A DNA stretch of 64,000 bases. Source: Scenedesmus sp. PABB004. Lineage: Eukaryota. Below are positions 7,500-64,000 of this stretch, in pieces. The position numbers and the translations under genes are program-made. The notes beneath the pieces are model-generated. The model saw nothing but the letters and a program-made list of their open reading frames with translations. It was not told the origin of the DNA and searched no databases. The stretch's first letter is position 1, and each line of letters begins with the position of its first letter. The stretch covers positions 1,488,001 to 1,552,000 of the forward strand of contig JABVCE010000002.1 in the NCBI GenBank assembly GCA_014905635.1. The letters run 5' to 3'.

Positions 7500-8807
7500 T
7501 CAGCTGCAGCAGCTCGACTTCTTGCGGCCGCCGTCCTCCTGGGGGTTGTCCACCACGATGCTGGTGCCCTGGTTCGGCAGCTGCACGACGGCGGCGGCGG
7601 TGCCGGCGCGCGGCGGCGGGGCGCGCGTCGGCGGCGCGCCCCCGGCGAGGCAGCGCGCGCGCAGGCTGTGCCTCGAGCGCTGCCCTGCGCCGCGCGCCGC
7701 CGCGCCTTGGTGCCCTTGTCGTCGGCGTCGATGACCTTTTTGCTGACGATGTGGTAGATCTCGGTCAGGATCTGGTGGAACGCCTTCTCGACGTTGGTCG
7801 ACTCGAGCGCGGAGGTCTCGATGAAGCTCAGGCCCTCGCGCTCGCAGTAGCCCTGCGCGTCGTCGGTCTGCACCGAGCGCAGGTGCCGCAGGTCGCTCTT
7901 GTTGCCGACGAGCATGATCACGATGTTGCTGTCCGCGTGGTCGCGCAGCTCCTTGAGCCAGCGCTCGACGTTCTCAAACGTCACTGCCGCGGCCGGCGGC
8001 CGGCGCGGCGCGGCGCGGCGCGGGCGGCGGTGAGCGCGGCCGCCGCCGCCGCGCCATGCTGCGCCGCGTCACGCCGCGCCGCCGCTGCGCTGGCGCCGAC
8101 TCCGCCGTCGCTGCCGCTGCCGCCGCCCCGCTGCTGCCGCCGTCGCCGTCGCCGTCGCCGCCGCCGCTGCCGCGGCTGTGGCCGCTGGCGCTGCTGCTGC
8201 TGCTCCTGCGGGCTCGTGCGAGCCGGCCGCGGGCGCAGCCGCCGCGCACCCGACTTTGTGATGTCGTACACCAGCAGCGCGCCGACCGCGCCGCGGTAGT
8301 AGGCGCTGGTGATGGCCCTGTAGCGCTCCTGGCCCGCGGTGTCCCAGATCTGCGCCTTGATGGTCTTGCCGTCCACCTGCGAGCAGCGGCGGCGCGCGCG
8401 CGCGGTCGGCCCGCCGCGGCGCCGGCGGCGCCCGCCGCTGCCGACCCCGCGCCCGCCGCTGCTGACCCGGCGCCCGCCGCTGCCGACCCCCTGCCCCCCG
8501 CCGCGCCCGCCGCGCTGCGGCGCCGCCGCGCCTGTATGCTGCGCGTCGCAAACTCGACGCCGATCGTGCTCTTCGACTCCAGGCAGAACTCGTTGCGCGT
8601 GAACCGGCTCAGCAGGTTGGACTTGCCGACGCCGCTGTCGCCGATGAGCACGACCTTGAACAGGTAGTCATAGCTGCGCGCGGCGCGGCGGCGCGGCGGC
8701 GCTCGGCGGCGGAGCAGCGGCGGCGCCCGCCGCGCGCCGCGACGCGGCCCTGCCCCGCGGCGCCCGCCCGGCGGGGGCGCGCACTCGTCATCTGGTTTGT
8801 GGCTCAT
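7500..8807 (-). CDS. RAB11: Rab11/RabA small GTPase, 5 exons
   Basis: [65 protein letters not shown]-terminal CCS prenylation site. Introns 2 and 4 are GC-AG. Confidence 0.97.
8428..8490. repeat. 21-bp minisatellite x3 in Rab intron 2
   Basis: Unit cgcccgccgctgc(c/t)gaccc.. repeated three times. Confidence 0.8.
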
Positions 8808-9624
8808 CCTGGCCCGGCGTGCGGCGACGGAGGCGCCGGGCGCGCGCAACGACTGCTCGCAGAGCGAACGCGCCGCGCGGGTGCAGGGCTTTCTGGCTCA
8901 GCGGGCGGGTGGGGCGACGTCGGGACGGAGGCCGGCCGCGGGGGGCATGTGGGGCGATGCATGCGCCGGGGAGGCCGGCGGGCGGGCGACGCTGCTGTTT
9001 TGGCCCCGCCTGAGCCCGCCCGTTCCGCTTGTGGCCCGCCGCACCGCCCGGGCGTGTGCGGACACGCGCCGCGCCCAGCCAGCGCCCCGCGGCAGCTGCT
9101 GCGGCCGCGTAGAGACGCCTGGCCCGCGCCAATCGTCTCGACGCGCACCCGCCGCAACCGCCGGCGCGCCCGGCTGTGTCTCTGGTGTCCTGTCCGGGCC
9201 ACCTCCCAGCCAGCAGGCCAGCGGCGGCCCAGCACCAGCGGCGGCGGCCCGCTGGCGGCGGGCCCCGCGGCCGCGCTCGCTGGTGCCGCGCCGGCAGCGC
9301 CGATCACAGAGTCACCGAGGGCCTCGCCCGCTGGTGGGCCCCGCATCACGCGGGAGCCCTGCAGCAGCTGAGGGCGGCGCCGCACCGCCCGCGCGAGCCT
9401 CGCTCTCGCCCGCCACACCACCCCACACCGCGACGCCTCGCTCGCTCTCTCCTCGTACGCGCGCTTATTGCGCCCACACCGCGCTCCTGCTCGCCGGCAC
9501 ACGTGCCGCCACACGCCTCACGCCTGCTCGCTGCCGTCGCAGCGCGCGCACCACGCGCGCTGCGCGCCGCCGCCACGCACGGCACGGCGCGGCGCGGCGC
9601 GGGCGCCGCTCACACGCCACCCCC

Positions 9625-61500: not shown

Positions 61501-64000
61501 GCGCACCGATGTGGGCCTTCTGGATCATGCCCACGTCGTTCGCGCCGTCGCCGATGGCGAGCGTGATGTCGCCCCACGTCTTGACGAGCGCGGTGACCTG
61601 CGCCTTTTGCAGCGGCGACACGCGGCAGCAGAGCACCGCCGCGCACTTGATGCCGACCTGCAGGAACTGCTGGCGCAGGCGCGGGCTGAGCGCGTAGAGC
61701 AGGGCCTTGCCGTCGATGACCAGCGCGTACTGCATCGCCACGCGCGCCTCGCCGTCCTCCTCCATCGTGCGCGACACCTTGCACAGCTGGCTCTCCAGCC
61801 GCTCCGCCGCGACCTGCGTCGCCTCCTCCATCTGCGGCGCGCCGGCGGCGGCGGCGCGCGGCGGCGCTGGGCTCGCCGCGGGCGGCCGGCCGGCAGGCTG
61901 GCCGGGGGCGCTCTGCCCTGCTGCGTCCGCTCCTCGCCCCCCGCCGCCGCGCAGCGCGCGCGCCAGCGCTCGCCCGCGCCCGCCCGCATGCACGCGCGCG
62001 CGCGCGCGCGTCCACGCACCCGGCCCTCCGCCTCGAGCGCCTCCACCTCTGCGCAAGAGCCGGTGAGCTGGAACTGCGTCATCTCGTCGGTGATGAGACT
62101 GCAGGCATAGCCGATGTTGATCGCCGTCTCCTGCGGCGACGCGCGCCGCCGCGGCAGCGCCGCTCGGCGGCGGCGGGGCGGCGCAGGCCAGCGCGCACGC
62201 AGCGCGCCAGCAGGCGGCGCAAGACCCTGCCGCTGCGCCGCGGCCGCCGCCGCGCCGAGGCCGCCGCGGCCGCCGCACCATCTTGTCGCCCGTCAGGACC
62301 CAGAGCCGGATGCCGGCCTGCGCGAGCGTGTTGATGCACTGCGGCACGCCCTCCTGCAGCTTGTCCTCGATCGCGGTGCAGCCGAGGAGCAGCAGGTCCT
62401 TCTCCACCTGCTCCCCGACCGCATCCACCTTGGCCGCGCGGTCGACCATGCAGAGCTTGGCCTCGATGAAGCGCTCGTTCCACCTGGGGGGACGGGGGCG
62501 CGGGTGCGGGTGCGGCGCGCGGGCGCGGCGCGGCGCTCAGTGCGCGCCGGCCCGGCGCCGGCGCGGCGCGGCGGGGGCGGGCCGCGCCGCCGGGGCCCCG
62601 CCGCGCGGCGGCGCGCCCCGCCGGCGCCCCGGGGACGCACTCGTCGTAAAACTTGGGGTCGAGCTCGGCGTAGGCGAGGCAGAGCGTGCGCAGGCCGGCG
62701 CTGCCAAACTCCTCCATGTGCGCGAGCGTGACCTCCTTGAGCGCGCCGTTGAGCGGGTGCCGCCGGCAGAGGCGCTCGTAGATCACCGTGTCCGCGCCCT
62801 GGAGAGGCGTCCCGCGGCGCGGCGCGGCGTGGGTCGGGCGCGCGCCGGCCGCGCCGCGCCTGACGGGCCCCCCGCGCGCGCAGCGCCCCGTGGCCGGCGG
62901 CGGCGGCCCCGGCGGCAGCGGCGTGCCGCGCCTTGCAGTAGAGTATGATTTTGTTGTCGGGCGTGCGCACGATGACGCTCATGCGCTTGCGCGTCGAGTT
63001 GAACTCGAGGATGTTGAGCACCTCGTACTCGGTCTCGCGCGTGACGTCGGGCAGGCGCTCGCGCAGCGTGACGACCGTGTTGGTGCGCTTGACGAGGAAG
63101 AAGCCAAACACCTTGGCCGCGACCACGAGCGCCGCCTCGTCGGGCGACTCCGCCTCGTAGCGGATCGCCTCGGGCAGCGCCGGGCCTGCGCCGGCGGGGA
63201 GCAGGCGGGCGGGCGGCGGGCGGGCGGGCGGGGCGGGCGGGCGGGCGGCGGGCGGGCGGGCGGGCGGGCGGGCGGGCGGGCGGCGGGCGGGCGGGCGGGC
63301 GGGCGGGCGGGCGGGCGGGCGGGCGGGCGGGCGGGCGGGCGGCGCGCGGGCGGGGGCGTGGGCGGGCGGGCCGGCGGCGGTGCGCGCACGCCGGCGTGCG
63401 GGCGGGCGCGCGCTGCGCGCGTCGCGCGTCGCGGCTCGCCGTCTGGGATGACGGTGTTGCAGAGCGCGAGGAGGCGGAAGAACTGCGCGGCGACGTCGGG
63501 GTTGGGCTGCCGCGCCCACTCGGTGCCCATGAGGCGGTCGTCGTAAAAGTTGAAAAACTGCTCCCGGTACTTGTTGTCACCCTCCTCGTCCGCGACGTCC
63601 AGCTTCAGCCCGCGCCTGCCGCGCGTCGGGAGCGCACGCGGCGGCGTCGGCGGCGGCGGCGCGGCGGGGCTGGTCGCCCCGGGGCGGCCCTGCCCCCGGC
63701 CCGGCCGCGCGGCGCGGCGCCGCGCGGTGTGCGCCGCGCGCACCGCTCCGCGTTGTTGCGCTCAATCTCGGTGATGCCCGCGCCGTACGCGACGCCGGCG
63801 ATGGAGCACTTGAAGAACTCCATAACGTTGCGCGTCAGCGTGCCTGGGCGCGAGCGCACGGGCGGGCCCGAGCGCGCGGGCGGGCGTGAGTGCGGCGCGG
63901 CGGCGGCGGCGCGCCGCGGCGGCGGCGCGCGGCGCGGCGCACCGGTCTTGTCTGAGAGGATGGTGTTGACCATGCCGAGCTCCTCGTTGAGGTTGCTCGT
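58591..64000 (-). CDS. P4-type ATPase phospholipid flippase (ALA family), 3' part; 5' end lies beyond the window
   Basis: [99 protein letters not shown]. Confidence 0.97.
63205..63372. repeat. (GGGC)n tetranucleotide microsatellite in a flippase intron
   Basis: Long run of gcgg/gggc units with a few interruptions. Confidence 0.9.

Follow-up and report, generated by a model that had tools for sequence, protein, structure and literature searches.

GC-AG introns appear to make up about 20 to 25% of the introns in one 64-kb window of a very GC-rich green alga of the Scenedesmaceae, Scenedesmus sp. PABB004. By the window we mean the whole stretch of 64,000 nucleotides (nt) that was analyzed (contig JABVCE010000002.1, positions 1,488,001 to 1,552,000). 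Coordinates below count from its first letter, and a donor is named by its first intron base, +1. The original prediction, made from the letters of the window, had listed 24 GC donors among roughly 125 to 130 introns. On the strand predicted, each of these 24 starts with GC (+1 and +2). Comparison with homologous proteins firmly places 18 of these junctions to the nucleotide, another five are plausible on an ab initio gene model, and one, at 12956, did not hold up. The GC-AG introns are very probably ordinary introns of the major (U2-type) spliceosome that carry C at +2: a bias toward G and C would erode the T at this position, strong flanking sequence would let the site tolerate the change, and the splicing machinery would be unchanged.

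Introns placed by homology

We aligned proteins to the window with a splice-motif-blind aligner, which places no condition on the bases at either end of an intron. In every intron that it found, all frame-preserving pairs of donor and acceptor within ±30 nt were then scored against the reference protein. Four genes were treated in this way. The references for SF3B3 were P0004, P0008 and P0009, one of them a protein of Tetradesmus and the other two encoded on contigs whose transcript length leaves no room for introns. Those for the P4-ATPase flippase were P0123 and P0126, the latter from a transcript assembly, and those for the TWD40-like WD40 gene were P0243 and P0244, both transcript-derived, with P0244 the shorter. 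Three distant references were available for the HRQ1-like helicase. Only its conserved core was scored, and the N-terminal part, including the donor at 26482, was uninformative.

The motif-blind alignments found 61 introns, 60 of which were resolved. GT-AG was at or near the top score at 45 of the 61, and at 15 GC-AG was at the top or fell short of it by 3 to 4 points. Only at one intron, in the TWD40-like gene, did any other dinucleotide win. All 15 GC introns placed by alignment belong to the set originally predicted. At these sites the best GT-AG join scored 21 to 66 points lower or was impossible, and the transcript-derived proteins of relatives (P0008, P0009, P0126, P0243 and P0244) lack the intron segments. 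Over all resolvable introns of the four genes, the GC-AG share was 15/60, or 25% (Wilson 95% interval, 16 to 37%). At a Chlamydomonas-like rate of 2.1%, the probability of finding at least 15 in 60 is 1.5e-12. The window combines very high G+C with a GC-AG share in the class of at least about 10%.

SF3B3 has 21 introns. GT-AG was at the top or within 3 points of it at 16, and GC-AG stood alone at the top at five, all on the minus strand, where the best GT-AG join was 21 to 59 points lower or impossible. In the intron at 43249..43552 (CAG|GCGCGC...CAG), GC-AG was the sole maximum with P0004, P0008 and P0009, with no GT-AG alternative. At 41047..41172 the GC-AG join scored 114, the maximum, and the best GT-AG join 59. 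The corresponding scores were 108 and 55 at 39783..39874, 117 and 96 at 38486..38690, and 102 and 71 at 38095..38308, GC-AG being the maximum each time.

The flippase has 14 introns, 11 with GT and three with GC (63439, 62931 and 59723), again on the minus strand. The intron at 63186..63439 has the donor ACG|GCGAGC, without an exonic AG. Its GC-AG join was the maximum with P0126 (103) and scored 109 against a top of 112 with P0123, while GT-AG reached at most 47 to 48. At 62799..62931, GC-AG was the maximum with both references and GT-AG was impossible. At 59600..59723, GC-AG was the maximum with P0123 (94; best GT-AG, 32) and scored 93 against 97 with P0126.

The TWD40-like gene (minus strand) has 15 introns: 11 with GT, three with GC (57979, 56263 and 55210) and one near 52540 without a clear join. 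The GC-AG join at 57831..57979 was the maximum with P0243 alone, P0244 being too short, and GT-AG was impossible. At 56105..56263, GC-AG was the maximum with both references (122; best GT-AG, 84). At 55110..55210 it was again the maximum with both (101 and 97), the best GT-AG joins scored 38 and 28, and a join beginning with CG lay 1 point lower. In the last intron, at 52430-52544, the best join began with GG (88), followed by GC-AG (76) and GT-AG (69); the ab initio model described below picks a GC donor at 52537.

The conserved core of the HRQ1-like helicase has seven GT and four GC introns, the latter on the minus strand. GC-AG was the maximum with all three references at 24250..24396 (GAG|GCGCGG) and at 20333..20452, where GT-AG was impossible in both cases, and also at 21147..21334 (78 to 91; best GT-AG, 44 to 52). 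At 22032..22119 it was the maximum with two of the three references, and the third favored a shifted, noncanonical join by 5 points.

In the small genes, single exons were searched against profile libraries, and a junction was judged by the continuity of the profile positions. The exons on either side of the Rab11-like GTPase intron at 8377..8531 (minus strand) matched positions 1-41 (plus one residue) and then 43-83 of the Pfam Ras profile without a gap, and the ab initio model also uses this site. Those flanking the intron at 11683..11823 (minus strand) in SDHAF2 (Sdh5) matched Sdh5 profile positions 1-43 (plus one residue) and then 45-67, likewise gapless. The purine nucleoside phosphorylase (PNP) intron at 36052..36171 (plus strand) separates TIGR01697 positions 28-57 from 58-100 and NF006054 positions 52-81 from 82-124.

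The ab initio model was a small Viterbi gene model with coding statistics from three genes and a GT-only donor matrix in which C at +2 was penalized. Under a lenient intron penalty it overpredicted, with 234 to 283 introns per strand, and we calibrated it against verified genes before applying it. The calibrated model recovered 48 of 49 training introns without extra calls and, among the 11 HRQ1 introns held out, 10. Of the 24 GC donors listed, all but one are used by the model. For the whole window it predicts 134 to 147 introns, near the 125 to 130 counted originally, and 37 to 51 of them are GC; when a GG decoy donor was permitted, it predicted just 6 GG introns. Our counts do not include the 14 to 28 extra GC donors, most of which fall where the sequence is unconserved or of low complexity. 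Set beside these totals and the 15 of 60 scored introns, the original estimate of about one in five (24 of 125 to 130) was a fair count, perhaps slightly low.

As a control, we ran the same pipeline on two 76%-GC SF3B3 loci from a metagenome scan. That scan yielded 80 SF3B3 loci with a best-segment identity of at most 67%, bar one short fragment (72%); 30 of the 80 were aligned, showed 0 to 8 gaps each and were used as a control only. GC-AG was at the top in one of eight gaps in L056 and in none of eight in L054. The majority of the gaps were multiples of three in length, with neither GT-AG nor GC-AG among the top-scoring joins, and we read them as in-frame insertions. The two loci, L054:5468-9625 and L056:10001-14371, lie on metagenome contigs. 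Each SF3B3 gene there has a single GT-AG intron, close to residue 15, and about seven gaps, mostly of 42 to 135 nt. They represent another very GC-rich but intron-poor eukaryote.

These results bear on the explanation that the GC donors are artefacts of annotation, the true introns using a nearby GT or the segments being coding. In sequence of 80% GC, the heptamer AGGCGCG is frequent (83 occurrences in the window, both strands counted), so the motif alone does not define a donor. The overprediction of GC introns under a lenient penalty, the lack of support for 12956 and a GT alternative to 34131 also speak for an artefact. The deficit of GT-AG at the 15 aligned sites speaks against it, as do the gapless profile matches across Rab 8531, SDHAF2 11823 and PNP 36052, the occurrence of just two unused AGGCGCG heptamers in 16.7 kb of sense exon, and the control loci, which did not yield GC-AG by chance. 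The alignment scores and the profile continuity refute the explanation for the 18 sites placed by homology, and we consider it very improbable for the set as a whole.

Donor and acceptor sequences

The 45 GT and 15 GC donors resolved by alignment share most of their intronic sequence. G was found at +3 in 60 of 60 donors, G at +5 in 58 and C at +4 in 45. The GT donors begin with GTG, followed at +4 by C (31), A (7), G (5) or T (2) and at +5 by G in 43 of 45; GTGCG[C/G] accounts for 26 of the 45, as expected from the original description of GT donors as mostly GTGCGC or GTGCGG. The GC donors have C at +4 in 14 of 15 and G at +5 in all 15, giving GCGCG. The two classes share the core that had been written G(T/C)GCG.

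The GC donors have the stricter flanks. GCG at +3 to +5 was present in 14/15 GC donors versus 30/45 GT donors. An exonic AG preceded 14/15 GC donors versus 18/45 GT donors (Fisher P = 0.0003), and an exonic CAG preceded 11/15 versus 11/45 (P = 0.0014). Scored with a matrix trained on GT donors and with +1 and +2 left out, the rest of the site averaged 6.8 bits in GC donors versus 4.4 bits in GT donors (one-sided Mann-Whitney P = 3e-6). These figures support compensation by exonic pairing, which the original prediction had proposed. Over the whole list, AG precedes 23 of the 24 donors, and the exception is indeed 63439 (CG|GCGAGC).

The acceptor was CAG in all 60 verified introns, mostly GCAG|G. 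Intron lengths were alike in the two classes, with medians of 147 nt for GC donors and 137 nt for GT donors. The introns are 87 to 88% GC and contain 5.6 to 6.8% T, and because of this composition a T-rich polypyrimidine tract is not evident in them; the tract is C-rich.

These introns have the features expected of the U2-type GC-AG class: a GC at the 5′ end, a 3′ end in AG, a junction that restores the frame, a donor consensus of the major type and stronger flanks. The U12-type donor box, RTATCCTT (PMC2846911), has no likeness among the 15 verified GC donors. U12-type introns also include non-GT donors, but the donors here read GCGCG[C/G] and so are not members of that class.

We propose that GC-biased mutation or gene conversion would steadily convert T to C at +2. 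The C would survive only where an exonic (C)AG and GCG at +3 to +5 leave sufficient pairing with the 5′ end of the U1 small nuclear RNA (snRNA). GC donors would then accumulate at the strongest sites, and T would be kept at the weaker ones. T is found at +2 in 75% of introns despite an intron interior with about 6% T, which indicates that +2 remains under strong selection. Algae with published high rates keep a canonical U1 5′ end, which reads AUACUUACCUG in Aureococcus, Micromonas pusilla and Micromonas RCC299 (PMC3033335). Mutation toward GC at a site that tolerates it would therefore be enough, and changed machinery would be unnecessary.

The original prediction had gone further, proposing relaxed recognition of +2, perhaps with altered U1 or U6 snRNA, U1C or Prp8. 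A spliceosome changed in this lineage, at the U1 5′ end, U6, U1C or Prp8, would read C at +2 as well as T. Reading of the 5′ splice site would in that case be retuned to G(Y)GCG, the changed component could match the C at +4, and +2 would be nearly free behind an exonic AG. Canonical U1 cannot pair with a C at +4, yet 45 of the 60 donors carry one; this and a share of GC donors as high as 25% would fit such a change. We nevertheless think it unlikely. The flanks of GC donors have to be stronger than those of GT donors, as an unchanged U1 predicts; T is kept at +2 in three-quarters of the introns, whose T content is only about 6 to 7%; and the U1 5′ 11-mer is the canonical one in the three algae just named. 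An Rfam scan of the 64-kb window gave no matches and no snRNA gene. If retuned reading were nevertheless true, this alga, at an extreme of nuclear base composition, would show as a natural experiment what drift the code of the 5′ splice site can bear. The earlier observation of frequent GC donors is confirmed, and its interpretation is partly supported.

A mobile intron family could also spread a GC donor by copying itself. Such introners occur in Micromonas pusilla and Aureococcus, two published GC-AG outliers that are introner-rich. We compared 63 introns of the window all against all by BLASTN and obtained only low-complexity matches. The matching pairs (435 GT-GT, 434 GC-GT and 93 GC-GC) were proportional to the pairs possible. 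With no GC-specific family or cluster among these matches, we rejected an introner origin, to which we give very little chance.

Errors of consensus or assembly, with T misread as C at +2, would produce the same pattern. The window seems to be an assembly of the metagenome type, which makes such errors conceivable. At least 18 of them would be needed, however, all T to C, all at +2 and all at unusually strong flanks. A freshwater metagenome DNA run, X1, contains 5% of the words sampled from the window. Over 17001-37000 it gave mainly GC-rich low-complexity noise, together with four pieces of 151 to 239 nt without differences. The only one of the four to cover a listed donor, an independent-looking 151-nt DNA contig, is identical across the site at 26482. 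We regard sequence error as hardly credible.

Several points weigh against our preferred reading, that of ordinary U2-type introns under GC pressure. The number of potential pairs to the canonical U1 5′ end is slightly lower in GC donors than in GT donors (5.87 versus 6.44; P = 0.05), so the lost pair at +2 is largely, not fully, made up and compensation is partial. Avoidance of the cryptic heptamer in exons is not significant (2 observed versus 4.4 expected; P = 0.2) in the 16.7 kb of sense exon, an underpowered sample, and the abundance of AGGCGCG in the window noted above counts here as well. Five sites come from the ab initio model alone, which often has another GC donor bases away at a cost of 4 to 25 bits, and at one of them, 34131, a weaker GT donor (GTGCCG) at 34152 fits the length of the homologous hydrolase. 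Finally, we infer both the mutation-pressure step and the removal of the segments from messenger RNA, the latter from the proteins of relatives, some of them transcript-derived.

Donors called by the ab initio model and their genes

The five sites called by the model (7705, 12103, 19217, 26482 and 34131) are plausibly real GC donors. They were chosen on coding potential and splice-signal scores, and masking them costs 7.5 to 18 bits. All five fall in unconserved or low-complexity sequence.

The second GC-AG intron of the Rab11-like gene, at 7581..7705 (minus strand), would lie in the hypervariable C-terminal part. Masking its donor costs 11.5 bits, and the next predicted exon ends in ...CCS and a stop. 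The first GC-AG intron of SDHAF2, at 11962..12103 (minus strand), has the donor AAG|GCGAGC and a masking cost of 9.1 bits, and the exon upstream has no family match. The predicted N-terminal intron of the HRQ1-like gene, at 26366..26482 (minus strand), has the lowest masking cost (7.5 bits) and a GT alternative at 26503; this is the site spanned by the identical 151-nt X1 contig.

The nucleolin-like intron at 19079..19217 (minus strand) would lie in an acidic low-complexity region. Masking its donor costs 12.3 bits, and the substitute is another GC donor 12 nt away. The gene (16840-19476, minus strand) has a long acidic Ser/Asp/Glu repeat region cut by several introns and a Gly/Arg-rich tail. 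By eye we saw two putative RNA-recognition motifs. The model is uncertain around a predicted exon of 39 nt at 19040-19078.

The intron at 34131..34224 (plus strand) lies in an alpha/beta-hydrolase gene (32561-34999, plus strand) originally called a peptidase. Its product is a homologue of Arabidopsis AT3g61540 (PDB 8jgn) and gives weak matches to prolyl-aminopeptidase profiles. The exons match residues 207-265 (plus 10 residues) and 284-333 of 8jgn, which brackets the junction to about 6 residues, the query being 6 residues short in a variable loop. Reading through the region meets an in-frame stop, and the ab initio model prefers 34131.

The donor at 12956 (12956..12967, plus strand), which had been assigned to a hypothetical gene, is unsupported. 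It scores 0.8 bits, has C at +5 and is not used by the ab initio model. It lies in the interval of about 1.8 kb that separates SDHAF2 from the gene beyond it (12240-14077). We sought coding potential there on both strands and found none that was clear; a proline-rich open frame at about 12700-12960 is all that the interval contains.

One further predicted gene, at 50107-52032 (minus strand), has Cys/His-rich segments in which we noted putative CCCH zinc fingers by eye, followed by about 270 low-complexity residues rich in Ala, Pro and Gln. Two of the extra GC donors predicted by the model, 51074 and 50982, flank a 27-nt exon in this gene and are doubtful.

Host lineage and comparison with other algae

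The whole window is 77 to 82% G+C, gene-dense and intron-rich. Sharp three-base periodicity appears in blocks of 150 to 900 nt with short gaps between them, the signature of many short exons. The protein translated from one SF3B3 exon is 89 to 90% identical to those of Tetradesmus obliquus and Scenedesmus sp., and that from one flippase exon is 88% identical to those of the same two algae. As judged from these best protein matches, which are to Scenedesmaceae (Chlorophyceae, Sphaeropleales), the DNA is nuclear.

SF3B3 (37220-44281) and the flippase (58591-64000) lie about 14 kb apart. Their T. obliquus counterparts have locus tags OEZ85_012138 and OEZ85_012134, four apart on the same 7.56-Mb contig, which suggests conserved synteny in this neighborhood.

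About 1% of human introns are GC-AG. The original prediction had set a background of about 1% in most eukaryotes against high rates in a few GC-rich haptophytes and pelagophytes. This was right but incomplete, since high rates have also been published for GC-rich green algae, 22.2% for Micromonas pusilla and 7.7% for Chlorella sp. (Iwata and Gotoh 2011; PMC3033335). That paper also gives 39.6% for Aureococcus anophagefferens and ascribes the rates to high G+C. A figure of 14 to 17% is given for pelagophytes (bioRxiv 10.1101/2024.10.30.620910). In Emiliania huxleyi about 60% of donors are GC, verified by reverse transcription-PCR and RNA sequencing, with about 98.5% AG acceptors, and high GC has been offered as the cause (Feldmesser et al. 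2014, PMC4028052). Expressed sequence tags of Chlamydomonas reinhardtii gave 532 GC-AG versus 25,053 GT-AG introns, or 2.1% (PMC2846911, Table 2).

The window resembles Aureococcus, M. pusilla and Chlorella in its high G+C, a GC-AG share far above 1 to 2% and an ordinary AG acceptor. It differs from them in lineage, in its higher local G+C (77 to 82%) and in the stricter flanks of GC donors measured here. As in E. huxleyi, GC donors are a major class, but they are a minority of about 25%, deduced here from homology, rather than an RNA-verified majority of about 60%. Compared with C. reinhardtii, the nearest model chlorophycean, the GC-AG frequency is roughly tenfold. C at +2, an AG acceptor and a better consensus at neighboring donor positions are all shared with ordinary U2-type GC-AG introns; for human GC sites, PMC3167603 deals with such compensation.

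Genome GC is generally linked with splice-site GC (PMC7072748). Within the Sphaeropleales, GC contents of 72% for Raphidocelis and above 70% for Scenedesmus sp. PABB004 have been given (PMC5966456, PMC12571836), and Tetradesmus obliquus stands at 57% (PMC5966456). The splice passage of the Raphidocelis genome paper mentions spliceosomal introns in cox2b. In the literature consulted we found no report of GC-AG frequency for Scenedesmaceae or Sphaeropleales, and the supplementary tables of pan-eukaryote surveys may hold per-species values.

The phenomenon itself is already known; what the window contributes is a chlorophycean lineage, to stand beside the few GC-rich algae in which T at +2 has eroded. 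The 45 GT and 15 GC donors form a small, clean data set in which erosion is seen only at donors with a strong exonic AG and GCG at +3 to +5. This flank pattern fits mutation pressure acting against a fixed need for U1 pairing and opens no new question. It does matter for annotation. In E. huxleyi, ab initio predictors biased toward GT mis-model genes (PMC4028052), and in very GC-rich green algae such as this one, GT-only predictors would mis-model about a quarter of introns. Annotation of such genomes, and of metagenome bins that contain them, needs a GC-donor class.

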